Part shown: piece after piece, positions 8,142 through 43,247 of the stretch
Layout: each line of letters opens with the position of its first letter
How positions within the stretch are numbered: the stretch's first letter is position 1
Source: Candidatus Bathyarchaeota archaeon
Lineage (GTDB): Archaea > Thermoproteota > Bathyarchaeia > Bathyarchaeales > Bathycorpusculaceae
Direction: 5' to 3'
Assembly: GCA_963826715.1 (NCBI GenBank)
Contig: CAWGYA010000002.1
Location: 1 to 64,000, forward strand
DNA length: 64,000 nt
Notes under the pieces: model-generated
Seen by the model: only the letters and a program-made list of their open reading frames with translations
Databases searched by the model: none
Told to the model about the DNA's origin: nothing
Position numbers and translations under genes: made by a program

Positions 8142-8430
8142 TTAATGAACTCCATTTTACAAATTTGCTACTCCACAGGCAGTGTTGAATCTGCCAAAGT
8201 TAGTTAAGCCTTGATTGCTAACTATTTACTTAGCTTACCATCTAGTACTTATGCTGTATGTATGAAACAAGAAAAGTACTTCCAGATTGCCTATTGATAA
8301 ATTTACTAACCTGAAATTACCTTTTAAGAAAGAAATGGTTCATGGGAGTGCAATATTCGATTTCCTTTTCAGTTTCTACCCAATCATTTAGAGCAAAGGA
8401 TGGAAGTGCCCAATGCTAGCCTCTCACTAC

Positions 8431-8500
8431 GAAGAACGTTTATACTCAAAGACTTTGTCAGAAAAGCAAAATAACGGTTAAAGCAAATTATATTGTTTAC
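8431..8500 (+). repeat. Repeat block B, copy 1 (copy 2 at ~14741-14810)
   Basis: gaacgttt.tactca.agacttt.tc.gaaaagc.aaataa.ggtt.aagcaaa shared. Confidence 0.85.
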
Positions 8501-8679
8501 TGGTAAATTGGGTCTATGATCCCCTCTTATTTTGTGTACCTACCGTTTCTTCTGGATGCAACACAATTCGGTTAGGCCATTCGTAATAGCCTTCTATGCC
8601 TCTCCAAAAGCAGCTACACCAACACTAACCTTAAAAAAATTAATTAAGCATAACCCATAACAGAATATGAGGAAAAAAC

Positions 8680-8880
8680 ATGCCTTTTGTACAAGTAAAC
8701 CTGTGGTCAGGAATAACCCTTGAAAACAAGAAAAAAATTGTCCAAGGAATAACCAAAGTTTTCATCGATATAGGCATCCCAGCAGAAGCCGCAACAATTA
8801 TCTTAATTGAATAACCCAAAGAAAACTGGGCAACAGGCGGTAAACTTCACTCTGAAAAAGACCCAGACTACCTACAATGA
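8680..8880 (+). pseudogene. 4-oxalocrotonate tautomerase family, internal TAA
   Basis: MPFVQVNLWSG...IILIE*PKENWATGG; in-frame stop at 8812-8814; not in the ORF track. Confidence 0.85.
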
Positions 8881-9052
8881 AAACAGCTATCCAGCTCACT
8901 ATTACAGATCTCAGGGGTTAGGTAGTCTTCTTGGGTTGTATAACAAAGACGTCAATATAGTTGTTGAAGAAGTATTAGGTAACCAACCTAAAGACATGCA
9001 CAGTTTTGTGTTAATTGACAATGAAGGCTTCAACCTTAACTTGAATAGCATC

Positions 9053-9230
9053 CCATGTGGGCGCCTTTAAATTCGAAGAAAAAGACAGCAAAAAGAAAAC
9101 TGTGATAAACCCAAACACCTGCATTGTATTCTGCAGAGGTTGCGAGGGCATCTGTCCCGTCGAAGCCATCACACACCCTTCGGAAGAGGAAATCCAAAAA
9201 ATAATCGACAAATTAAAACCAGCAGCATAG
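9053..9230 (+). pseudogene. 4Fe-4S ferredoxin, C-terminal fragment
   Basis: VINPNTCIVFCRGCEGICPVEAITHP; the N-terminal cluster motif is missing. Confidence 0.7.
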
Positions 9231-9254
9231 CAACCCTGCAAACAATAGTGGATA

Positions 9255-9725
9255 GTGATAGAGCACGCTGATTTCAACAGAAGCATGAACGGCTGGAGCC
9301 TCTACTCAGCCCAAGGCGGCTACAGCACAACGTACTTCTACTCCTCACCCTCCTCAGTCCGCGTCACATATACGGGCACCTCAAACTATGGACCAGGCTA
9401 CCTCAAAAAAACCATAACTGTAGGCTCCTACTCAAGGGCACGGCTTATTTTTCATCACTATGGCAGAAGCGGAAGCGACTACCAAAACAACGACGGGTTC
9501 GAGCTATCAATCGCAGGAGTCCTAAAGAAACAACGAGCTCTACCGTTGCCCTTCAACCCATGGAACCGCATTGCTACACTCCTTGCGTTTGGAACCGTGC
9601 TAATAGTTTTGGGCATCGTCCTCTTTTTTGCAAAAGGAATCCAAGATGCGCTCGTATTACCCATCTTTGGAGTGGTATTGCTTATTGCCGGAATTCTTTA
9701 TAAGCCACGCAAGAAAAAGACTTAA
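9255..9725 (+). CDS. Hypothetical, possibly chimeric (beta-rich N-part plus 2-TM C-part)
   Basis: ORF with abrupt compositional change near residue 95. Confidence 0.4.
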   Translation: MIEHADFNRSMNGWSLYSAQGGYSTTYFYSSPSSVRVTYTGTSNYGPGYLKKTITVGSYSRARLIFHHYGRSGSDYQNNDGFELSIAGVLKKQRALPLPFNPWNRIATLLAFGTVLIVLGIVLFFAKGIQDALVLPIFGVVLLIAGILYKPRKKKT

Positions 9726-10240
9726 AAAAAGTACTAGCGACGCACCGTAGAGCCCAAAATAATTCATGTGAGCGTCTTTTTAGTGGTAAAATTCGGATAG
9801 GATCCCCCACCCAGCGCATAGAGAAAAAAATCAGAAGTCAAGTGTTAAGAAAATGTTTTTAACACTTTTGGGTATGGGGACGGGCACCTACATTTGGTCA
9901 AAAATCGCAAAGATTAGTCTTATTCAAACATGCCAACTAATCACTCCACTGAAATTTACTTCTGAATAGGAGAACGCCTCTACCATTACCCATGTACTAC
10001 GTCGACGAAATATTGGTCATATCCAAATAAGTTTAACTTGATGAATTATTTCGTACAGGATCACCAAAGTCTAAAGCGGGCATTTCCACCTATTTTCAAA
10101 TAAATTAAACAGGACTACCTCATCAAAACCGTTAACGCCTACGCTAAACAAAAACGCTGCAAGCAAAAAGCACTAACACATTATTGGGCAAACACGGTAG
10201 TAACTCAAAAAAGCAACCAAATTATTTTAAAAAGAAGTAA

Positions 10241-12199
10241 TTATTCAACCTGTATATTTCTGGGAATATGTAAGCTAAATGTCGAGCCTCTGCCCTCTTT
10301 GCTTTCAAAACTCACCGAACCACCCAACGACTCAACTATCCTTTTAGCAACCACCAACCCAAAACCTTGACCCTTACTCTTTGTCGTAAACAAGGGTGTA
10401 AACAACTTACTTTTCAACGAGTTAGGTACGCCTACACCTGTATCCTTAACAGCGATAACCAAATCGTCAGCGTCTTCATAAGCATGAATATAAAGTTCTC
10501 CCCCGTTCGGCATAGCCTGAATAGCATTAGAAATCAAATTGCCCAGCGCCCTCTTCAAGAAAAACCCATCGGACTGAGCTGCCTTGACAGCCTGTTCTAC
10601 TTGAGATGAAGCGTGAATATTATCGGGAAACGTTGCCTTAAGTAGCAACTCTTCAATAAGCTCGTCCAAATCCACCTCACTAATCGAAGGATTGAGTGGT
10701 CTGACAAAGTCTTGAAGATCAGCAACAATTTTATTGATGTAATCAGCATTCATATTAATCTCGCGAAGGCTATTCATCAAACTCTGCCTTGTTTCGCTAT
10801 CAGGCAGTGAAGTCAAATCAGACTCGGCTATGTAGACTTCACTAATTATAGCTTGCAACGGATTACGTATGTCATGCCCAACCATTCCAGCTGTTGCACC
10901 AATAGCAGCTAGACGCTCTGCGGCGCGCAACGAATTCGTTTGCTCTTCAACAAGTCCTTTCAGATTCGTAGCATATTCTTCAAGCTTTTCTTGCATTTCT
11001 CTACGCTCTGTTACATCAAGAACAAACGACAAAACCGAAGTCAACTTTCCATCAGGGTCATAGAGCGCAGAGTTATACCATTCACAATATATGACAGCCC
11101 CATCTTTTCGGTAATTGCGATTTGAACTAACGCTTCTGGGGAATTTCCCCCTAAAAATGTCTATTGATAATTGCTGAACTAATTCAACATCATCATCATA
11201 AACCCAAGGCATCTCAGCAATAGCTTTCCCTAGAATTTCGTCTTTTGACCAACCAAAAATTCGCTGGGCTTCATCAGACCAACGTATGACGCGATATTGC
11301 GGGTCAAATTCAATAATAGCTTCAGGTGCATTTTTCATATGAGCCTCCAATCGCTGTTTAGCCTGACGAAGTCCTTCCTCAGCCTTTTTACGTTCAGAAA
11401 TATCCTCGATAGTGGCGATGGCCATAACTGTTTTTTTGTCCGGTCCATATATTGGATTACTTATTGTTTGCCCCCAAAATATCTGCCCATCTTTGCGTAT
11501 ATATCGCTTTTCAATTTTATAATAGTCTCTCTTTCCCGCAACTACTTCTTCGACTAGGCTCCATTCTTTTTTTGCATCTATTGGATGCGTGAATTCCGAG
11601 AAAACTTTGTCGCAGAGTTCTTTTTCACTATAACCTAGCATCCGTTGGAACGCGCCGTTGCATTTGATTAGGTGAGCCGTTGGGTCGGCTATTGCGATGC
11701 CAAGTACTGTTTTTTCAAAAACTGCACGGAAACGTTCTTCACTTTGCCTAAGTGTCTCTTCCATTTTTTTGTGTTCGGTTATATCCCTTATTATTATGCT
11801 TGTTTTGACTGTGTCTTCGACATCGGTGAAGAGGCGGGAGGACACCTCTGCATTAAAAATTGAGCCGTCTTTGCGTTTTAAGGTTAGTTCAGCTTTTGCT
11901 TTGCCCTCACATTCTCGTTGGTTAAGTGCTGCTTTGGCTTTCTCGTCCAGCACAACCACACCTTCTCGCCCAACCTTTTTGAGCTCGGCCTCAGTCATGC
12001 CAAACATGTCGCATGCTGCTGGATTGGCGAAAAGAATGCTGCCATCGGGCTTGGTTAACAATAGTGGGTCAAAACTGTTTTCAAATAAAGAATAAAAAAG
12101 GTCGTCTTTCGGGTTAAGTTGAGTTTTTTTATCATCTTGCGGCTGTTCTGTTTCTTCATGTGGACTAATTAGTTGTTTGGATTTTGGAAAAGCCGTCAA
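10241..12199 (-). CDS. Multi-PAS sensor histidine kinase
   Basis: Three PAS/PAC repeats, GHDIRNPL H-box, N/G1/F/G2 boxes. Confidence 0.95.
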   Translation of the reverse strand: MTAFPKSKQLISPHEETEQPQDDKKTQLNPKDDLFYSLFENSFDPLLLTKPDGSILFANPAACDMFGMTEAELKKVGREGVVVLDEKAKAALNQRECEGKAKAELTLKRKDGSIFNAEVSSRLFTDVEDTVKTSIIIRDITEHKKMEETLRQSEERFRAVFEKTVLGIAIADPTAHLIKCNGAFQRMLGYSEKELCDKVFSEFTHPIDAKKEWSLVEEVVAGKRDYYKIEKRYIRKDGQIFWGQTISNPIYGPDKKTVMAIATIEDISERKKAEEGLRQAKQRLEAHMKNAPEAIIEFDPQYRVIRWSDEAQRIFGWSKDEILGKAIAEMPWVYDDDVELVQQLSIDIFRGKFPRSVSSNRNYRKDGAVIYCEWYNSALYDPDGKLTSVLSFVLDVTERREMQEKLEEYATNLKGLVEEQTNSLRAAERLAAIGATAGMVGHDIRNPLQAIISEVYIAESDLTSLPDSETRQSLMNSLREINMNADYINKIVADLQDFVRPLNPSISEVDLDELIEELLLKATFPDNIHASSQVEQAVKAAQSDGFFLKRALGNLISNAIQAMPNGGELYIHAYEDADDLVIAVKDTGVGVPNSLKSKLFTPLFTTKSKGQGFGLVVAKRIVESLGGSVSFESKEGRGSTFSLHIPRNIQVE

Positions 12200-12634
12200 T
12201 GCCAGTAACTCATACTCTTTACGAGTTAAATATTATATAAATTTTATCAAATTTATGCGCTGTCTTTTTTGTAAGGCGCCAAAATCTGCCGGAAAACGAA
12301 GCGCGTACTTTCTAGACTCAGTGTCAACAAGTATCTTTGACTCCCAACTTGCCTAATAATCCATTGATCGCTATTATTTCAAAAGTTTTTTTTCTCAGCA
12401 ACCCCCCAACAATATCTTTAGGAATTTTATCCAATCTACGCCGTTTATGTTAGTTCTTCAGTTGATTTCTGGACTATCTTTGATGAGTTCGCTGTGATAG
12501 ATTTTGCCCAGCTTATTATGCTTTTTAAGACTAAGGGTTCAACGTTTCTACGTATCTTGCTAACGTAGCTTATTTGGCTCGAATTCTTTGGTTCAAATTT
12601 CAGCAGATGATCAATGTTGGGAAACAATAATAAT

Positions 12635-13394
12635 TTAGCACTTTTGTTTTTTTGACTTCTCCAAGGCGTCTCTGAGAGCAATCGCGTTTGAAAAATGAAC
12701 CTGAAAATCTTTTTCTCCCTGCACAATCAACACAGGGCACCTCACTTTCTCAATTGTCTGCAAGGGGTCGTGCATAAAATGCTCACGGTACCATTTGGCA
12801 TAGACTTTGTGACCTCCAACCTCTATGTATTCGTCACCACGTTTAACATCCTCGATAAATTTCTTAGTTACTTCAACTGGATCTGGTGAATCTTTAATCT
12901 TCATTTTTTCTTTTTGTTCTTTCGTCAGGGTTTTGAGCAATTCTTTAGTGGACTTTGCTGCATCATTATCTCGTCTAGCTTTTGGCTTGTTCCGGCACAA
13001 ATCACAAGCGCAGCGATAGCAGAATCTTCCCCGCACAGAACAGGCCCAATTATTCCTCCTTCACTATATGCCCCAGTACGATTATTCTTGAAGGATCAAC
13101 TTCTTTTCTGCTCCGCAAGAATCTGATCGCAGCTTGTACATCAGAAACGAAATCTCTGAATCCAGCAGTTTTATAATCTCCTCCACTTTTGCCGATTCCT
13201 CGCTTGTCGTAGCGCAGTACTGCAAAACCCTCTTTTACAAAATAATTGGACATTTCATTAAACACATTAAGCTTGTATTGACTGATTTTTAAATTGAAGA
13301 CTTTCAATGATTGTGCAAGATTCTCTTTTTCGTTTGGAGATAAAAGTGTAAAATCTGGGTTCTCATCTCTGTCGGTTGGTCCCGATCCATGCAC
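12635..13394 (-). pseudogene. Alpha/beta hydrolase, fragmented
   Basis: HGSGPTDRDEN, LRYDKRG, IVLGH then frameshift; PVLIVQGEKDFQV; further remnant down to ~12450. Confidence 0.8.
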
Positions 13395-36266: not shown

Positions 36267-36504
36267 TGCTCTAAAGACCCTGAATAGCTGCTTTGGCTGT
36301 CTTATTCATGATCTTGAATTATGTTATAATATTCTAATATCGCACTTTTAGACGTTGTGGTGGATTATAGAAATTCTTCCTTAATTCTGAGGAAAGCAAG
36401 CATTGACTATCTATTGGCGCTGATAGTGGGGAGTTATCGAACGCTGAGCTACCCTTAAGTAACTCTTATATTCAGTTATCAATAAGTTAGTAAGAGGCTT
36501 TTTA

Positions 36505-37005
36505 GTGAACTTCAAAGATTCTGAGTTCTTGCTGGCGTTATTAATTGTCATAGTAACAGCCTTGTTTATGGTCGCTGCCTTCCTACATTGGATAAACGTA
36601 AGTTTCTTTGTTGGTCCGCTTCGTTTCAGTCATTGGCTTGCCATAATTGGAACTAGCTACATTGCCATCGATACCCCAGTATTCGTGCTCTTAAAGCGTT
36701 ATTATCCTGAAAAATATAAGGGACTTCTTAGGTACCACATATTCGGTAATCTTCTATTCTTTTCGCTAGTCTCGATTCATTTTTCGGGTCAACTAGGAAG
36801 GTCCGCATTATTCTTTCCGTCTTTGGGAACGGGTTTAGCTATTTACATTTCCATGACTTTAGAAGTGATATCAGGTTTCGCTGAGAGATTCCCATTAATA
36901 AAGCAAATTGACCATAATACTAACAAGTTTATTCACGCCAGTTTGGTTATGGTATTTTTCTTGGTGATAATTTTCCATGTTCTTATCACATTAGGCATTC
37001 TCTAA
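36505..37005 (+). CDS. His-containing membrane protein, paralog of 23396-23914
   Basis: Shared His motifs. Confidence 0.7.
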   Translation: MNFKDSEFLLALLIVIVTALFMVAAFLHWINVSFFVGPLRFSHWLAIIGTSYIAIDTPVFVLLKRYYPEKYKGLLRYHIFGNLLFFSLVSIHFSGQLGRSALFFPSLGTGLAIYISMTLEVISGFAERFPLIKQIDHNTNKFIHASLVMVFFLVIIFHVLITLGIL

Positions 37006-37182
37006 AATCGGGTAGAACTTATCTTTAATATATAACGACCATGCAAGACACGAGTGCTTGCTTGCAAGAAGGGTACCCTTTAGTGATGTATCCTGCTTCA
37101 AGAGGAGGTTCTTAGTCGGCGGCAACCCTTGTGGTTGCTCGCTTCTATCTATTTTATTCTTTAATCTTACTGTTTAATGTGC

Positions 37183-37202
37183 GGCTGGTGTGTTGGTTGT
37201 AA
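37183..37202 (+). repeat. att site (duplicate of the RNase P RNA 3' end)
   Basis: ggctggtgtgttggttgtaa, 19/20 identical to 42492-42511. Confidence 0.88.
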
Positions 37203-37284
37203 TTCCACTCCTGTGGAGATATCTCCCGCACCTCTTCCCTTTTTTCATGCTATGGCAACTTAGGGCTTCTGCTGTGCCTAAAAA

Positions 37285-38232
37285 ATGGCATCCCTTCGAG
37301 GCTTCCTCAAAGACTACCTACGACAAAACTTCTCCGTCGATGAAATTGTTGAGAAATACAAAGAATGGGTTTCCGAAAACACCTACATGATACTCTCCAA
37401 ATGGAATAATAAAAAATGGAAAAATGACGTTTTCGCTGTCAAATGCTCCAAACGTGGAAATGATATCTATCGCTGGCGAGTAAAAAGCAGATTTGTAGGT
37501 CTGAGTCATAAAGCAGAGGATTTAGTTTTTTTCAACCCTAAAGACAGAAGTAACGATAAAACTACGTGCGCCCTTTGGACTACACTAACCTATGATACTA
37601 AACTCTGCTCATACAAAGAAGCATGGGAACAAATAGGCATAGAATTTAACGCATTCATGGCTTATGTTAGACGTAATTTTGGAAAGGTTTCCTGTTGCCG
37701 AGTGTTTGAATCCTTCGAGAATGGCTATCCACATATTCATTGTATCTTGCTCTTTTCACAATACACTTTTCAAGTGTTTAGGGATGCTAAAGGTCAATTC
37801 AGAGTGCATGAGAAGGATACTATTGCTAAAGGCTGGCATAGCAACGTTGACGTAAAAGCCATGAGTTCCCTTGCTGGCGGTTTCTCATATCTCAAAAAGT
37901 ACCTGCTAAAAGGCATTGACGCTGAAAACGCTGATTCTAAAGGCTTAAAGACATTGGCTCTCTGTTGGATTTACCGAAAAAGAGCCTTTGCCGTAAGTGG
38001 AACTTTCCGTAAGGCGTTGTCCGACTTGATTACTGATTTGCATAACTCAAACAAACCCACAACACAAGTTACTCTTTTAGGCGAAATAATCCCTGAAGAA
38101 CATTTCTATTTACTCGGTTTCGCCTCAGCTCAGGAACTACAAATAGACAAAAATATTTGGTTCACTATTTTAAATAGTAAACAGTTGACTTTGCTGAATG
38201 ATTGTTTAAAGAAGACATATTATGCTAAGTGA
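37285..38232 (+). CDS. rep: Rolling-circle replication initiator (HUH endonuclease, two-Tyr type)
   Basis: Motif I WTTLTY, motif II ENGYPHIHCILL, motif III YLKKYLLK. Confidence 0.9.
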   Translation: MASLRGFLKDYLRQNFSVDEIVEKYKEWVSENTYMILSKWNNKKWKNDVFAVKCSKRGNDIYRWRVKSRFVGLSHKAEDLVFFNPKDRSNDKTTCALWTTLTYDTKLCSYKEAWEQIGIEFNAFMAYVRRNFGKVSCCRVFESFENGYPHIHCILLFSQYTFQVFRDAKGQFRVHEKDTIAKGWHSNVDVKAMSSLAGGFSYLKKYLLKGIDAENADSKGLKTLALCWIYRKRAFAVSGTFRKALSDLITDLHNSNKPTTQVTLLGEIIPEEHFYLLGFASAQELQIDKNIWFTILNSKQLTLLNDCLKKTYYAK

Positions 38233-38367
38233 AAAAAATAAAAACAAAATTTAAAAAATAAACCACTGATAGAATACATATAAGAAGCATTCAATAGATT
38301 TTTAATTCTTTATGGTCAACAGCAACAGATTCTTCAGAAACTTAAATAAATATACTTGTTGTAGACT

Positions 38368-39024
38368 ATGGTTGCAATCGATGAAGGTTATTCTATGGCT
38401 CAAGTAATTAAAGCTCAACCCATGGACATGTCCCTTAATTCAATCTGGATGTTAGATCCCGAGTATAAGGGTATCCGCCAATCTTTAGAAAGTAAAGGAT
38501 ATACATTAAAAGAAGAATCAAGAGGCATCTTGACTATAATTGCATCCAAAGGTACAGTAGAAATATTTGTGAATCTGCAAAGGCGTGTATTGGGTATTGG
38601 TAGCGAAACTTCGTCTAAAGATATGCTTGCAGCATATGACGACTTGGATCAAACCTTTACTGATATCGGTATGGAACCTTCTAATCTAATGTTTATTGAG
38701 TTTATAGGCAATTTTATAGTAGAATCCCCTGTAAGTCCAATAGAGACACTGAAAGGTCTAAAATTTGAAAATGATTTATTAATGAAAATAGGTGTAATTT
38801 TAGAAAAAGATGTTGCAAATGTCGGGATAAATCTTACTCTGAAGGAAGCTAATCCTACTGGATCCAATTGGTTGCATATGGTAATTGAACCACTATATCC
38901 AAGCCCTAATAAAAAATATCGTGTTAGAACGATATGTAGAGGCGACAAAGAAGAAGTACTAAAATTTGTTAAAAATATTGAGAAAAGACTGCCAAGAATA
39001 ATTGAAAAAATTGAGAGGAAATAA
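38368..39024 (+). CDS. Hypothetical alpha/beta protein, first gene of the cargo operon
   Basis: Intact ORF, TATA-like tract upstream, 3 bp gap to the next gene. Confidence 0.75.
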   Translation: MVAIDEGYSMAQVIKAQPMDMSLNSIWMLDPEYKGIRQSLESKGYTLKEESRGILTIIASKGTVEIFVNLQRRVLGIGSETSSKDMLAAYDDLDQTFTDIGMEPSNLMFIEFIGNFIVESPVSPIETLKGLKFENDLLMKIGVILEKDVANVGINLTLKEANPTGSNWLHMVIEPLYPSPNKKYRVRTICRGDKEEVLKFVKNIEKRLPRIIEKIERK

Positions 39025-39027
39025 ATT

Positions 39028-39585
39028 ATGGCTCTTTCTGAAGAAAGCACAGGTTTTAGTTTATACGATTGTTCATATTTAACCGAAAGAGATATCGCTT
39101 CTTCTCAGCCAGATTTTTACAAAGAGAGACAATCTTTGGAGCAAAAACCTGAAAAGCTAATAAATATTCTACAAACGCATGAACCGATTTCTGTTGTAAG
39201 TAGAGTTGAAAATTTGCTGTCAAGTGCTGCCGCAAGTGACTACCCACTTAGCCTAAATACTAAACCAATTTATGAAATTTCAGAAGATGCTAATACTTAC
39301 ATTAGTAGACAGAAAAATTTTTCTAAATATGAAAAAGAAATTACGAAAATATCTTGTTGCATATCTGAATTTTTAACCAAGGAAGGTATTTCATCAAAGA
39401 TCACAGTGAGTCTCTTTTCTGATCCTGAATATTCAAACTGGATTGAACCAAGAATCCAAATCGGGGTTAGACAGGAAACTCTACAGAAAACTTATGCCCT
39501 TTTTAATGAACTATTAGAATACTCATTTGTAGGAATATCAAAAAAAACATTAAAAAAGATCGTCGTTACTATTGATAGCCAATAA
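39028..39585 (+). CDS. Hypothetical protein, probable HEPN partner (C-terminal DPE domain)
   Basis: VSLFSDPEY...IQIGV; abuts the HEPN gene. Confidence 0.7.
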   Translation: MALSEESTGFSLYDCSYLTERDIASSQPDFYKERQSLEQKPEKLINILQTHEPISVVSRVENLLSSAAASDYPLSLNTKPIYEISEDANTYISRQKNFSKYEKEITKISCCISEFLTKEGISSKITVSLFSDPEYSNWIEPRIQIGVRQETLQKTYALFNELLEYSFVGISKKTLKKIVVTIDSQ

Positions 39586-40032
39586 GTGGTAATCATGATA
39601 GCTCCCTGCAGCTTCATGCTGTTTGCAAAGAAGCTCGTTCAGCAAACAAATGCTCCTGAAGAAGAGTATCGATCAGCAGTAAGCAGAGCATATTATTCAT
39701 TATACCATGAAACGCTTCATCATTTGGTTCAAAAATATTCATTTGATTTAATAAATAGCATTGAAAAAGCCAAAAGAAGACAATTGACTCAGCATGAAAA
39801 AACCAGACTTAGCGCGCTTGACCCCACCTTTTTGAGAAAATTTAACCTTCATCAAGCAATTTCTGACACGCTTTTTGACCTAAATTATCGGGCAGTTGCA
39901 ACAACTTTTAAGGGTTATAGAGCTCATCGAAATCAAGCCGATTATGACCTAAAACGAAATTTAACACATATTGAAGCAGATGTTATAGTAAAGAACATTG
40001 ATGTTTTTATTGGCGCCATTAAAGCGCTTTAA
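39586..40032 (+). CDS. HEPN-domain protein
   Basis: YRSAVSRAYYSLYH and HRNQADY motifs; all-helical pattern. Confidence 0.85.
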   Translation: MVIMIAPCSFMLFAKKLVQQTNAPEEEYRSAVSRAYYSLYHETLHHLVQKYSFDLINSIEKAKRRQLTQHEKTRLSALDPTFLRKFNLHQAISDTLFDLNYRAVATTFKGYRAHRNQADYDLKRNLTHIEADVIVKNIDVFIGAIKAL

Positions 40033-40139
40033 AACAAGTCAGGTATTAATAAATTAAATAAAAATTTTCCAAAAGCTGATTTAAGAAAGTCGTAAGAGAA
40101 TAAAAGTAATACGTGTAAATCATAGGAGTTTTTGGGATT

Positions 40140-40256
40140 GTGCCGAGGGAGGAGTGCGGGGGGGTACCCTTTAGGGTGGGGTCATCCGCTACGACGACCG
40201 AGGCGCTTAACGGTCGTCGTCTGGAACGTGCGAGGCGAGCGGTAGCCGCCGAGCCA
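40140..40256. other. GC-rich multi-hairpin region, candidate rolling-circle origin (sso/dso)
   Basis: Perfect 10-bp IR acgacgaccg (40191-40200) / cggtcgtcgt (40211-40220); accc-ttta-gggt; gcgg-tag-ccgc; set in AT-rich DNA. Confidence 0.6.
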
Positions 40257-40263
40257 CAAAAAA

Positions 40264-40983
40264 CTACTTTCTTACTCTTTTTCCAGTTTCCTTTCTTTTT
40301 CGATATAGCTCACGGTCACTTCTTAACGCATTGGTCAATAGCTCAATTTTCTCAAAAAGTGCTTTTTTGTAGTTATCATTGTAACGACATTTTTCACTTG
40401 CTCTTTCCAATTGAACTCTATATGTAGGTCTTACGACGTAGTTCCAAAAAGATTCGTCGTTTTCGCCATTTTTTAGCTGTAAACCGTCATTTATTGAAAG
40501 TCTCAATTCCCAAAGGTTCAATGCCATAATATCATGTAAATCTCGGTCAGTTTCAAAATCTATTTCGTCGTCAGAAAGATTGCTGTAAAACTCTTCTGTG
40601 GTTATGGGTAAAGCTCGCAATTCTGGGGGAAGGCATGCATTGTTACCAAGGTCAAGGTACTCCAGAATTTCCTCCTTTGGCATAATCATTATGCTTCTAA
40701 ACTTGTCGCTTAAAGCGTAGGTTACCTCTTGAAAGCCAGTTTCAACCCGCTTAACCAACTTCTTTTCCTCTAAATGTTTTAGGTGTTTAGACAAAACCTT
40801 ATTGGTTATCTCGGTGTCTGTCAATTTGGTAACAGCGCTTTTTAGGTAACCAAATCTAAGAATTTTATCCTCCAACAAAATTCTAAGAATGCTCTGGCAA
40901 GTATGGTCAAGAAATTCGGCTGAATCAAACAAAGACTCTCTTTCCTTCTCATCCATTGGCGTTTCATTAACCATTAGATACAC
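40264..40983 (-). CDS. Winged-helix (HxlR-like) regulator of the element
   Basis: LRFGYLK...NKVLSKHLKHLEEKKLVKR...VTYAL. Confidence 0.8.
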   Translation of the reverse strand: MYLMVNETPMDEKERESLFDSAEFLDHTCQSILRILLEDKILRFGYLKSAVTKLTDTEITNKVLSKHLKHLEEKKLVKRVETGFQEVTYALSDKFRSIMIMPKEEILEYLDLGNNACLPPELRALPITTEEFYSNLSDDEIDFETDRDLHDIMALNLWELRLSINDGLQLKNGENDESFWNYVVRPTYRVQLERASEKCRYNDNYKKALFEKIELLTNALRSDRELYRKRKETGKRVRK

Positions 40984-40992
40984 CCTGTGAAT

Positions 40993-41014
40993 TGGGTACC
41001 AGACTGGGTACCAG
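40993..41014. promoter_or_regulatory. Tandem TGGGTACCAG operator between divergent genes
   Basis: tgggtaccag-ac-tgggtaccag followed by a ttattaatata TATA-like tract. Confidence 0.65.
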
Positions 41015-41056
41015 TTATTAATATACTCTTTTTGAGCCTTAAACTCCGTTGGAGGT

Positions 41057-41290
41057 TTGACGGTGAAAAATCAATTAAAACCTAACCAGATAGGCATAGA
41101 AGTAAATGATGTGGACTTAAACAAGATCTGTCGAGTAGGCAAAAAAGTGCAAGTGTTCCTATGCAGAAAAATCGATGACCCATTTGAAATCTACTTGCTC
41201 CTAAAAATCCTCTGCTATTCACTTGAGGAGAAAATGCATTTTCTTCTAGACCCTGAAGACGAACAAGCACTAAGAAAAATTTTTGCTTAA
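41057..41290 (+). CDS. Small hypothetical protein upstream of the integrase (possible Xis or antirepressor)
   Basis: GGAGGT RBS; first gene of the int operon. Confidence 0.6.
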   Translation: MTVKNQLKPNQIGIEVNDVDLNKICRVGKKVQVFLCRKIDDPFEIYLLLKILCYSLEEKMHFLLDPEDEQALRKIFA

Positions 41291-41314
41291 TAATCAACTA
41301 AACGAGGTTTAGAG

Positions 41315-42463
41315 TTGACTGCTCAAATAAATGTGAGTGGAGGTGAAAAGGCAAACAGAGAATGTCCTAATTGTCATAGTAAGAAAAACTGGAAAAGAGG
41401 AAAAAGAGAAAATCAATTTGGCTCAATTCAGCGGTTTATTTGTCGAGAATGCGGTTCAAGTTTTAGTGAAAAATCATATAAAGATTATCAGCTATCAAAC
41501 AATAGCCAATTATGCGCTAAATTAGAGGCGAAAAAATTGGATACTGCAACAGAATTAAAAACTGTTGCGGGAGATAACAACGAACAAGGGGAAATCATAG
41601 CTTTCCTATGGCACCTAAAAAAGCAAGGGTACAGCGAGTCTACAATCCATACAAGAGTAAAGATACTGAAATTCATGAGAAAACAAAGCGTGAACCTACA
41701 AGATCCTGAAGCGGTCAAGCTTTTCATTGCAAAACGCGAAGAATGGAGCAATGGACATAAACAAATTGCCGTAACCTCCTACGATGGCTTTGCAGAAATG
41801 CTAAAAATAAAATGGGAACCACCGTTCTATGAAAACAACAAAACACTTCCTTTCGTTCCAACAGAAAAAGAAGTCGATGCACTAGTTTCCGCATGCAGCA
41901 AAAAAATAGCTACCTCATTATTAGCAATGAAAGAAACAGGCTTTAGAATAGGCGAACTATGGAAATGCAAATGGACTGACTTAGACGAGGAAAATAGTAC
42001 ACTCAAATGCATAGCAGAAAAACACGGCAATCCAAGACAAATCAAAATATCAAGCAGATTAGTTTCGATGCTCTTAGCACTACCAAAGATAAACGATTAC
42101 ATCTTCGCTAACTCCAATCTAAACGGTCACAGATGGCGATTCGACAAACAGAAAAAAGCCCTATCGATAAAACTACAAAACCCAAGGCTCAAACAAATAA
42201 AATTCCATAGCATGAGACACTTCAAAGCATCAAAAGAATACGCCCAAACCAGAGACATACTACACGTCAAAGAGTTTCTCGGTCATAGGAACATCAACAG
42301 CACCTTAGTTTATACACACTTAGTTCCTTTCGATGACGACGCACAAGGCTATAATCACGCAACCGCAAAAGACGAGAAAGAAGCAGGAGAGCTAATTGAT
42401 AACGGTTTCCAATATGTTTGTTCTACTCCACAGGGAGTCATGATGTTTAGAAAACGCAAGTAA
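41315..42463 (+). CDS. Tyrosine recombinase/integrase with N-terminal zinc ribbon
   Basis: CPNC...CREC; TGFRIGE (R), KHG (K), HSMRH, LGHRNI, VYTH (Y). Confidence 0.95.
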   Translation: MTAQINVSGGEKANRECPNCHSKKNWKRGKRENQFGSIQRFICRECGSSFSEKSYKDYQLSNNSQLCAKLEAKKLDTATELKTVAGDNNEQGEIIAFLWHLKKQGYSESTIHTRVKILKFMRKQSVNLQDPEAVKLFIAKREEWSNGHKQIAVTSYDGFAEMLKIKWEPPFYENNKTLPFVPTEKEVDALVSACSKKIATSLLAMKETGFRIGELWKCKWTDLDEENSTLKCIAEKHGNPRQIKISSRLVSMLLALPKINDYIFANSNLNGHRWRFDKQKKALSIKLQNPRLKQIKFHSMRHFKASKEYAQTRDILHVKEFLGHRNINSTLVYTHLVPFDDDAQGYNHATAKDEKEAGELIDNGFQYVCSTPQGVMMFRKRK

Positions 42464-42491
42464 AGATACACCTAGGCGGGTTAGTAAAATA

Positions 42492-42800
42492 GGCTGGTGT
42501 ATTGGTTGTAACCCGCCTTTTGTTATTGTGGCATTTGGCTAATCGGGCTACCCGCGCCTTCCGGTAGATGCTTCATCGGCGTCTGTTTGCCCTTTCCACT
42601 TGCAGGACGGCCGTTTCACCGGTTCCCGTTCAGCGGACTCGGCATCACAAATGCGTCATTGCCATATCTGAAGGGACGTTTCGTTTCTGCTCTGTTGCCA
42701 AGCCTTTAGGCCTGCCCCATAGGAGCTGCAATTCTACATGTGGGCGGAGTTTCCTCAGACCCTTTGCAGGGTCCGACAGCCACGCACCAACCCACCAACC
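42492..42800 (-). ncRNA. rnpB: Archaeal RNase P RNA
   Basis: CR-I GAGGAAACUCCGCCC, GCAGAAAC, GGUGAAACGGC, AGCCAAAUG, CR-V ACAAAAGGCGGGUUAC; P1 GGUUGGUGGGUUGGU pairs with ACCAAUACACCAGCC; AAACTTTATC promoter upstream. Confidence 0.95.
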
Positions 42801-43040
42801 CATGGTGTAAAAGGCAGTCGCAAGAAGATAAAGTTTAGCTGCGGTAATTTTACAAATAGCACACAAAAACGAATTGTTCAAGCGTGAGCTGAAAATGAAA
42901 GGTAAGGTAAAATCTGAAATATCAGGAAAATTTGATGCCGTTTCGTTTATGAGATTTTGGTGTTGTGCAGATACAGTCACAAATTTTTAAAAGCAGTATA
43001 TCTCAAATGATACTGGCGACATGTAATTTATCTTTGGGAG

Positions 43041-43247
43041 GTGCATTTTATGCCTGAATCAGAGAATATAAATGAAAGATTGCAGAAAATCGGTGAAACC
43101 GCACAAGAATACAAAGATGCTATCATGAACCAATTCAAGGACATGGAAGTTGAAGTAAAAAACTGGAACTTTGCGGTTGGAAAAATGGAAAAGGATTACA
43201 CAGTTGAGATAAATCTTAAACTAAATATCCGCTCCAAAAAACCTTAA
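43041..43247 (+). CDS. Small hypothetical protein
   Basis: GGAGGTG RBS; likely ATG start at 43050. Confidence 0.65.
   Translation: MHFMPESENINERLQKIGETAQEYKDAIMNQFKDMEVEVKNWNFAVGKMEKDYTVEINLKLNIRSKKP

Follow-up and report, generated by a model that had tools for sequence, protein, structure and literature searches.

A stretch of 64,000 nucleotides from Candidatus Bathyarchaeota archaeon (assembly GCA_963826715.1, contig CAWGYA010000002.1, positions 1-64,000 of the forward strand; this whole stretch is called the window) raises the following question. Why does the 3' end of rnpB, the gene for RNase P RNA, occur a second time 5.3 kb away, with a replication initiator (Rep) encoded next to the distal copy and a tyrosine integrase encoded next to the gene itself? 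An earlier note on this DNA had proposed that the intervening segment is a small integrative element that uses rnpB as its chromosomal attachment site (attB). The anatomy of the repeat, an element-free version of the locus and the recurrence of similar insertions at rnpB in other genomes all agree with this proposal. Very probably, the segment is a small integrative rolling-circle replicon, or cryptic integrative plasmid, of a soil archaeon of the Bathyarchaeia with rnpB as its landing site.

The genome to which the window belongs is a metagenome-type assembly of 2.64 Mb in 8 contigs, in which a single rnpB match was found. This gene lies on the minus strand (42497-42795) and matches the Rfam family RF00373 over its full length (model positions 1-288; 170.2 bits against a gathering score of 84). 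At E≤1, nothing besides rnpB was matched in Rfam between positions 36900 and 42600, and the 64-kb window contains no tRNA or tmRNA genes. The in-gene copy of the direct repeat (42492-42511, minus strand) is the core of attL, the junction at the gene, and spans the last 15 modelled nucleotides of rnpB, which constitute the 3' strand of helix P1, and 5 nt of the trailer. The distal copy, at the other junction (attR, 37183-37202, minus strand), is identical to it at 19 of 20 positions, and there are 5,309 bp between the repeats. The two copies differ at position 37192 (G), which corresponds to 42501 (A). In the RF00373 alignment this base pairs with G5 of the 5' strand, so that the U of the gene forms a G.U pair and the C of the distal copy a G-C pair. 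Both the identity of the repeat with the P1 3' strand and the pairing at the mismatch are as the earlier note had described them. With up to two mismatches allowed, the 20-mer occurs twice in the window and not once in 100 shuffles. The core adjoins GGCGGGTTAC in rnpB, which, on our reading of the RF00373 model, we take to be the 3' strand of P4. This decamer, or a form that is one base off, is present at the rnpB end in all 22 of the integrase-free rnpB loci listed.

The state of the locus before insertion can be seen in a public soil-metagenome study (runs X1-X4), the one study in which the locus was found, whose contigs were compared with window positions 36400-43100. A contig from run X2 (record 10; 697 nt, depth 6.1) joins position 37192 to position 42502 and skips exactly 5,309 nt. 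On the rnpB side it is identical to the window over 407 nt; the 289 nt on the other side differ by one substitution and one indel. This contig is the empty attB, joined exactly at the repeat, and it has a G at 37192, that is, the G-C variant of the distal copy. As the empty site carries this variant, the U in the gene is most simply explained as having been brought in by the element, and the strand exchange as having occurred upstream of the mismatch in the rnpB sense. The claim that the element supplies a replacement 3' end had predicted just this variant in an unoccupied site, and attR is then the displaced original end of rnpB. At a second locus (L076), too, the gene carries the element-type base and the distal copy has kept the native one, and the difference is again wobble-compatible. 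In a related genome (locus L045), rnpB is followed directly by 17 nt identical to the window flank beyond attR. In run X1, the occupied attR junction is present (record 2), together with element sequence in 23 of 30 bins. Run X2 contains little of the element and run X4 little of the locus; uncovered parts in such contig-only runs prove nothing.

Could the repeat and the gene order be due to chance or to a chimeric contig, in which an rnpB contig was joined to a plasmid contig? The assembly is of the metagenome type and consists of 8 contigs, and short shared cores can cause contigs to be mis-joined. Against this, the attR junction is found in the independent contigs of run X1, the same architecture recurs at 29 other loci in many assemblies, two single-contig genomes among them, and the pair of 20-mers is not expected by chance. 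An artefact is thus a very remote prospect.

Both ends of the element carry genes that are expected of an integrative replicon. The Rep gene (37285-38232, plus strand) encodes a 315-residue protein that matches the HUH endonuclease family PF23343 (REP_ORF2-G2P) over residues 97-210 with 30.9 bits against a cut-off of 27.8. Its HUH motif PHIHC (H150, H152), its tyrosine pair in YLKKY (Y202, Y206) and its motif LTYD are invariant in 14 of 14 aligned homologues, which bears out the description of the protein as a two-tyrosine HUH Rep. The further suggestion of a DUF1424 or pleolipovirus-type Rep did not hold, as PF23343 is the only Pfam family matched at E≤0.1. The 723 homologues found at E≤1e-3 include proteins named 'rolling circle replication-associated protein [Ca. 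Bathyarchaeia]', and PF01446 (Rep_1) is also present among the homologues. The structure model of Rep is of low confidence (pLDDT 53); a Foldseek comparison with the PDB gave no matches at E≤0.001, the viral Rep nuclease domains appearing only at E 0.03-0.05, and a search of PDB sequences with the Rep profile gave only chance matches to nanobodies (E about 0.3).

Upstream of the Rep gene lies a conserved box of 32 nt (37214-37245, plus strand), 63 nt from the Rep start, which consists of the palindrome GGAGATATCTCC, then CCGCA and then a T-tract. Related Rep loci with 110 nt or more of sequence upstream number 74; in 30 of these, and in the window, the sequence TCTCCCGCA of the box precedes the Rep gene with at most one mismatch. 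The distance to the Rep gene is 61-95 nt, and 61-69 nt in 29 of these cases. The box is a candidate for the double-strand origin, the rep promoter, or both.

The integrase gene (41315-42463, plus strand) is transcribed towards rnpB. The protein has 382 residues with an N-terminal four-cysteine zinc ribbon, and matches PF00589 with 65.4 bits (cut-off 27.1) and the PHROGs integrase family phrog_1 with E 1.3e-22. Residues R211, K236, R301, H324 and Y333 are invariant in four of four aligned integrases (alignment A1) and presumably are the catalytic ones. The reading frame is uninterrupted, and a base-by-base check placed its stop codon 28 nt from the repeat, as claimed for an intact integrase at this position. 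Identity with the archaeal XerA was rejected, the match to NF040815 reaching 80.4 bits against a cut-off of 220.

The 28 nt between the integrase and the repeat (42464-42491) form the integrase-side arm of the attachment site. In it, GGCGGGTTA (42475-42483) is an inverted repeat of TAACCCGCC (42509-42517) in rnpB and, in the rnpB sense, a T4 tract follows immediately after the end of the RNA. The window and 13 of 29 occupied loci have the arm motif AACCC[GA]CC 13-18 nt past the rnpB end, and none of 22 integrase-free rnpB loci has it. In convergent-type elements at nine other loci (L050-L052, L057, L060, L066, L067, L070 and L083), the last 9 nt of the core (ACACCAGCC; ACACCACCC in L057) occur again in the arm, 12 nt downstream. 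These 9-nt repeats, which occupy the place of the AACCCGCC motif of the window, are possibly alternative integrase-binding sites.

The process of integration can be pictured as follows. In the circular form of the element, the core would lie between the integrase-side arm and the Rep-side arm, and this arrangement would constitute attP. The integrase would recombine attP with the end of rnpB by the attP x attB exchange of tyrosine integrases. Of the sites and products involved, attL, attR and the empty attB have been seen, and the catalysis of the exchange by this integrase is predicted. Strand exchange would take place in the 5' part (the first half) of the 20-bp core, in the rnpB sense, upstream of the mismatch. 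The rnpB gene would then keep its body and gain the element's copy of the last ~10 nt together with a new trailer that contains a T-tract, and the original end would be displaced by 5.3 kb. P1 would remain paired, because the single difference changes a G-C pair to G.U. Once excised, the circle would be nicked by Rep in or close to the conserved box that precedes the Rep gene, and rolling-circle replication would follow. A winged-helix protein encoded in the element probably acts as a regulator, and the middle open reading frames (ORFs) would be cargo. That the element has a free replicating form at all is deduced from its intact Rep and the conserved box.

If rnpB is the landing site, similar insertions should be found behind rnpB elsewhere, and the earlier note had suggested looking for them. 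Both close and distant homologues of the integrase do in fact lie beside rnpB 3' ends in many Bathyarchaeia. Among 30 rnpB loci of relatives, five have an integrase homologue or a remnant of one at the 3' end (G003, G012, G014, G015 and G030). The integrase of G015, at a contig end, is 75% identical to that of the window; G014 retains only residues 243-382 and G012 only the last 18 residues. Genome G030 is of another GTDB family, and its locus has a 24-nt repeat 4.9 kb away. In the single-contig genome G003, two more copies of the last 24-27 nt of rnpB lie 4.5 and 11.1 kb downstream, which makes this locus a tandem array.

An alignment of four of these integrases, used to scan prokaryote genomes at one per species, gave 44 loci, of which 43 are labelled Bathyarchaeia, Bathyarchaeota or Crenarchaeota. 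The remaining one (L072) is a contig in a metagenome-assembled genome (MAG) labelled as bacterial (Acidoferrum); it carries an archaeal rnpB with an adjacent integrase and is probably mis-binned. With a profile of 24 rnpB sequences, rnpB or its 3' part was found with its 3' end at most 101 nt from the integrase at 29 of the 44 loci. Thirteen of these are convergent, with zinc-ribbon integrases like that of the window whose stop codons lie 35-48 nt from the end of the RNA. The other 16 are co-directional: the integrase starts at the RNA end and has no ribbon. The second member of the G003 array adds one more locus. At four others, the integrase adjoins a bare rnpB-like core: L053, L055 (which lies at the end of a contig), L074 (on the same contig as L063 and downstream of it) and L091. 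Distal repeats were found at 11 loci; successive copies of the core there delimit 14 segments, of 2.4-7.6 kb.

A class-wide draw of 151 genomes gave 99 with rnpB and 74 with an integrase of the window family (E≤1e-10). The integrase abuts rnpB in at least seven of these genomes, from four GTDB families and at least two orders; in one of them (G144), distal repeats of 22-23 nt lie at 5.6 and 7.0 kb.

Two or three different elements stacked in tandem behind one rnpB, with copies of the core between them, were seen at L063 and L074 (one contig), at L040 and at L075. In genome G023, rnpB scores equally on two contigs, one of which (L027, contig C4) stops 2 nt past the RNA end, and the other (L045, contig C13) runs into the empty-site flank. 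Several loci end at the core, and assemblies appear to break at the rnpB attachment site. In the genome of the window (G000) itself, the integrase family has 15 matches (E≤1e-10), several of which contain internal stops. This suggests that the genome has many integrated elements and remnants.

The relationship between these integrases was examined in a midpoint-rooted tree of 29 ORFs of at least 260 residues, from which 18 shorter or broken rows had been dropped. A clade of 16 integrases (support 100/100), including that of the window, consists entirely of sequences at rnpB or at a bare core, and answers the question of whether an rnpB-specific clade exists. The sister and nearest relative of the window integrase (L048; 100/100, 84% identity) likewise lies at rnpB, and seven co-directional rows form a subclade (100/100) inside the 16-row clade. 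A second clade (100/99, 11 rows) contains six rnpB-associated, one bare-core and one tRNA-associated integrase, and three without an identified target. Both gene orientations therefore occur within one integrase family, with tRNA-targeting relatives nearby. As the root of the tree is not established, no order of events is drawn from it.

The insertions at rnpB do not belong to a single conserved 'rnpB element'. This notion was rejected because the Rep and the cargo of the window were not found in the other rnpB-inserted elements, so that only the integrase/att module is common to them. Neither the other 43 integrase loci nor the loci of the G-numbered genomes contain Rep, save for a decayed fragment elsewhere in the window's own genome. 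The other elements carry a different 380-residue candidate initiator, an Eco57I-like methylase, an AAA_15 ATPase and a gene for TATA-binding protein (TBP), or a P-loop protein. The element of G030 has a full TBP gene (L041, 14853-15410; PF00352, 205 bits) and an AAA_15/AbiEii-like ATPase in the 4.9 kb between its rnpB-end repeats; provided that this element has been delimited correctly, it is unusual for one so small to contain a TBP gene.

Conversely, relatives of the Rep occur in elements with other targets. Of 369 metagenome relatives of Rep, 80 contigs were kept; none of the 80 carries rnpB, and 21 carry an integrase homologue or a fragment of one, 16 of the zinc-ribbon type. One Rep contig (L145) has the core 85 nt upstream of Rep, with a flank that resembles the rnpB 3' flank of L033; this is an attR in another host. 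Eleven contigs with both Rep and integrase were examined, and several are bounded by unrelated repeats of 13-18 nt at the same positions, which indicates that the same backbone is aimed at other targets. At a second locus of the window's own genome (L044, G000:C2:290000-309000, at about 8281-12752), a close paralogue of Rep survives as a decayed fragment (88% nucleotide identity over ~310 nt). The fragment adjoins an aspartate-carbamoyltransferase-like gene, with a different integrase of 423 residues 3 kb away, and the locus probably goes back to an old insertion, at a different target, of a related element.

Several observations weigh against the reading of the element as a mobile replicon that is specific for rnpB. 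Five of the 44 integrase relatives abut tRNA genes (L077, L082, L084, L089 and L090), and five more have no identified target or are cut (L073, L078, L079, L081 and L087). The 44 loci were found with peptide patterns derived from rnpB-associated integrases, and the samples overlap and contain kin that are not independent; the proportion of 34/44 therefore overstates the specificity, and these counts describe a recurrent association and not an unbiased specificity. By a simple ORF test, the 29 rnpB-adjacent integrases comprise 16 that are intact, 12 that are broken and one that is cut by a contig end, so that many such insertions are decaying. A circle junction of the exact element, which the earlier note had suggested as a check, was not seen in the metagenome contigs. 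The nearest thing to it is a contig from run X3 (record 19; 307 nt, depth 2.3), in which the core and the Rep-side arm (16 differences in 176 nt) are preceded by an end that resembles the integrase-side arm. This contig hints at the attP of a relative or, equally, at a junction within a tandem array. Terminal overlaps indicative of circularity were found in none of the 80 Rep-bearing metagenome contigs and in none of six short integrase contigs, a result that is compatible with circles, since assemblers often trim such overlaps. Nothing related came from the viral, plasmid and phage collections: the search with Rep found no relative among the viral contigs of IMG/VR or in the named plasmid or phage collections, and the integrase alignment gave one distant match (30%) among the viral contigs. 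Finally, the empty-site contig may come from a strain that was never invaded and not from one that lost the element by excision.

These points lead to the question of whether the insertion is a fixed, immobile remnant, that is, a domesticated island, with the occupied and empty sites reflecting an old divergence of strains. Besides the 12 broken integrases and the missing circle junction, the loci that retain fragments only (G014, G012) would fit such an explanation. The window element itself does not look decayed, however. Its integrase and Rep are both uninterrupted and retain all catalytic residues, and its repeat is preserved at 19/20 positions. Moreover, the flanks of the empty site are near-identical to those of the window (at most one substitution and one indel in 696 nt), which suggests that the event was recent. 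We regard a domesticated island as unlikely, and an integrative replicon as the better description of the element.

The genes between Rep and the integrase bear on a second alternative, namely that the element is a small provirus or a virus satellite (of a pleomorphic or single-stranded DNA virus, for example). Downstream of Rep on the plus strand is an ORF of 218 residues (38368-39024), taken as cargo, which matches no family in Pfam, PHROGs, NCBIfam or PADLOC, has only unnamed archaeal clusters as relatives in the protein atlas, and is absent from the related loci compared. It is followed on the same strand by ORFs of 185 (39028-39585) and 148 residues (39586-40032), which abut and may be partners. 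The former has weak matches to phrog_27013 (E 0.0098) and to a PADLOC CARF model (E 4e-4). The latter is tentatively HEPN-like: it matches phrog_5176 with E 8e-15, and its atlas neighbours are named HEPN domain-containing protein (scores 0.93-0.94). Together, the two possibly constitute a toxin-antitoxin or defence cargo. The winged-helix DNA-binding protein (239 residues; 40264-40983, minus strand), likely a regulator, matches the HxlR family PF01638 with 23 bits against a cut-off of 20.8 and has a homologue of 36% identity in a related Rep and integrase contig (L125). Just upstream of the integrase there is a 77-residue ORF (41057-41290, plus strand) without a family match, for which an excisionase-like role would be a guess.

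The 218-, 185- or 77-residue ORF would, in a provirus or satellite, be structural or interact with a helper. Three to four ORFs are indeed without an assignable function, many archaeal virus proteins escape profile searches, and integrating archaeal viruses with rolling-circle Reps are known, SNJ2 being an example in the available text of PMC13107129. Yet the proteins of the element match no capsid, packaging, spike or membrane-protein families, and their PHROGs matches are limited to the integrase, a winged helix-turn-helix protein and one family whose function is unknown. No conservation of the unassigned ORFs was seen in related Rep and integrase loci, as would be expected of cargo and not of a virion module, and neither IMG/VR nor the phage collection holds a relative. 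The absence of capsid, packaging and conjugation genes, as claimed at the outset, was seen across Pfam, PHROGs, NCBIfam and PADLOC, and nothing positive was found in favour of the virus satellite suggested alongside it. A viral origin is thus improbable, about as much so as domestication, and a cryptic integrative plasmid remains the preferred description.

One non-coding feature of the element deserves mention. A GC-rich block with a perfect 10-bp hairpin (40140-40255) is shared with another rnpB-inserted element that is otherwise unrelated (L083, 4055-4125; 90.5% identity over 74 nt). Two partial and mutually inverted copies in the window's own genome (L044, 8694-8729 and 11362-11401) flank 2.6 kb, and a 40-nt core of the block also occurs in other contexts among reads. 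We do not take the block for an RNA gene, since its fold is no better than that of shuffled sequences (z -1.04) and it has no Rfam match.

Two further observations concern the surroundings of rnpB. A short dispersed repeat of about 30 nt that contains a hairpin (37113-37145) lies in the host flank just beyond attR. It recurs in the same genome (G000:C2:90817-90849, 97% identity) and, with different sequence to either side, on other contigs in runs X1, X3 and X4. Another Bathyarchaeia genome (G044) has two divergent full-length RNase P RNA genes (L173; G044:C6:92530-92850 and 97926-98204) on one strand, 5.4 kb apart. Their scores of 191.9 and 197.5 bits are both above the Rfam cut-off, and no integrase of the window family was found in this genome.

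What would such an element mean beyond this locus? Tentatively, and with less confidence than for the element itself, one or more lineages of Bathyarchaeia tyrosine integrases might have specialised on the universally conserved P4/P1 3' segment of rnpB. With each insertion they would rewrite the end of the ribozyme, with wobble pairs in P1 and a new trailer and terminator, so that the hosts would depend on an essential ribozyme with an element-derived 3' end, and tandem stacks would be left behind. If it is the conserved CR-V/P4-P1 segment that is recognised, the system could offer genetic engineers a transferable landing pad in archaea that are uncultured or genetically intractable, and targeting of rnpB may exist unnoticed in other lineages. 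Bathyarchaeia are among the most abundant archaeal groups of sediments and soils, and we know of no genetic system for them. The 5-kb replicon, with its candidate origin box, Rep, integrase and attB, could serve as a part list for a first shuttle or integration vector. The integrases define a clade with a predictable target in Bathyarchaeia. With rnpB, an essential gene that is single-copy in this genome, a ribozyme joins the conserved RNA genes that integrases, as a rule, choose and repair. Island finders that are limited to tRNA and tmRNA genes would miss such elements or delimit them wrongly.

Site-specific integration into genes for structured RNAs is textbook knowledge for tRNA and tmRNA genes. 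Williams reportedly described in 2002 how genomic islands, proviruses and plasmids with tyrosine integrases are inserted in the 3' ends of these genes. The earlier note had not recognised a described archaeal system that uses rnpB. No description of rnpB as attB was found in full-text searches of the literature, with the reservation that the supplementary lists of PMC13626063 may name bacterial RNase P RNA. In the available main text of that 2026 provirus survey, 'ncRNAs' make up 13.5% of the provirus RNA targets and are unnamed. RNase P is not mentioned as a target in the available text of a review of archaeal tyrosine recombinases (PMC8371274), of a study of Bathyarchaeia viruses (PMC10848311) or of a 2026 prospecting of integrases (PMC12884075). 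TIGER and Islander recognise only tRNA and tmRNA genes, coding sequences and intergenic sites as target classes (PMC12424338).

Among archaeal elements, the cryptic integrated elements of Thaumarchaeota, a sister lineage in the same phylum, are similar in that they are small, combine an integrase with a replication protein, and have no virion or conjugation genes (available text of PMC6563490). The 68 targets in that survey comprise 39 tRNA genes, 15 intergenic sites and the 3' ends of 14 protein genes, and the text as available has no mention of RNase P or rnpB. One of them, NitAQ6f-E2, has a rolling-circle Rep of the SNJ1/IS91-like type, unlike the PF23343 Rep of the window. The temperate pleolipovirus SNJ2, as far as the available text of PMC5861418 and PMC13107129 describes it, likewise has an integrase (SNJ2-type) and a rolling-circle initiator (Rep-Arvir) at opposite ends of its integrated form, which become neighbours across attP in the circle, and in the window int, attP and rep would also share one strand. 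SNJ2 differs in being a virus with a tRNA target and a non-HUH, Rep_trans-like initiator. An int-attP-rep operon that forms only after excision, as in SNJ2, is a weak possibility for the window element; it is doubtful because a T6 tract and the conserved box, which Rep keeps upstream of its gene inside the element, lie between int and rep. An SSV-type ('suicidal') integrase, whose gene contains attP and is split by integration, was ruled out, as the core starts 28 nt past the stop codon and the ORF is whole.

Related to the element are five metagenome contigs with Rep and a zinc-ribbon integrase (L111, L115, L116, L122 and L125), which have the same layout of repeat, box, Rep, integrase and repeat in 4-6 kb. 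Their Reps are 62-66% and their integrases 40-46% identical to those of the window, and they differ in that their flanking repeats are unrelated 13-18-mers and no rnpB is present. A parallel in mechanism is provided by the islands that occupy genes for tRNA and tmRNA, as catalogued by Islander and TIGER (available text of PMC4383910; PMC12424338). There too, the integrase lies beside the target, the repeat is the 3' part of a structured-RNA gene, the element regenerates the gene and leaves the original fragment at its far end, arrays in tandem are known, and relatives have an empty site. Islander defines an island as an integrase-bearing segment between an intact target gene and its displaced 3' fragment, and this describes the window element, with the gene of the RNase P ribozyme (RF00373) in place of a tRNA or tmRNA gene. 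The mechanism is thus that of the tRNA/tmRNA-island paradigm, and the target is what differs.

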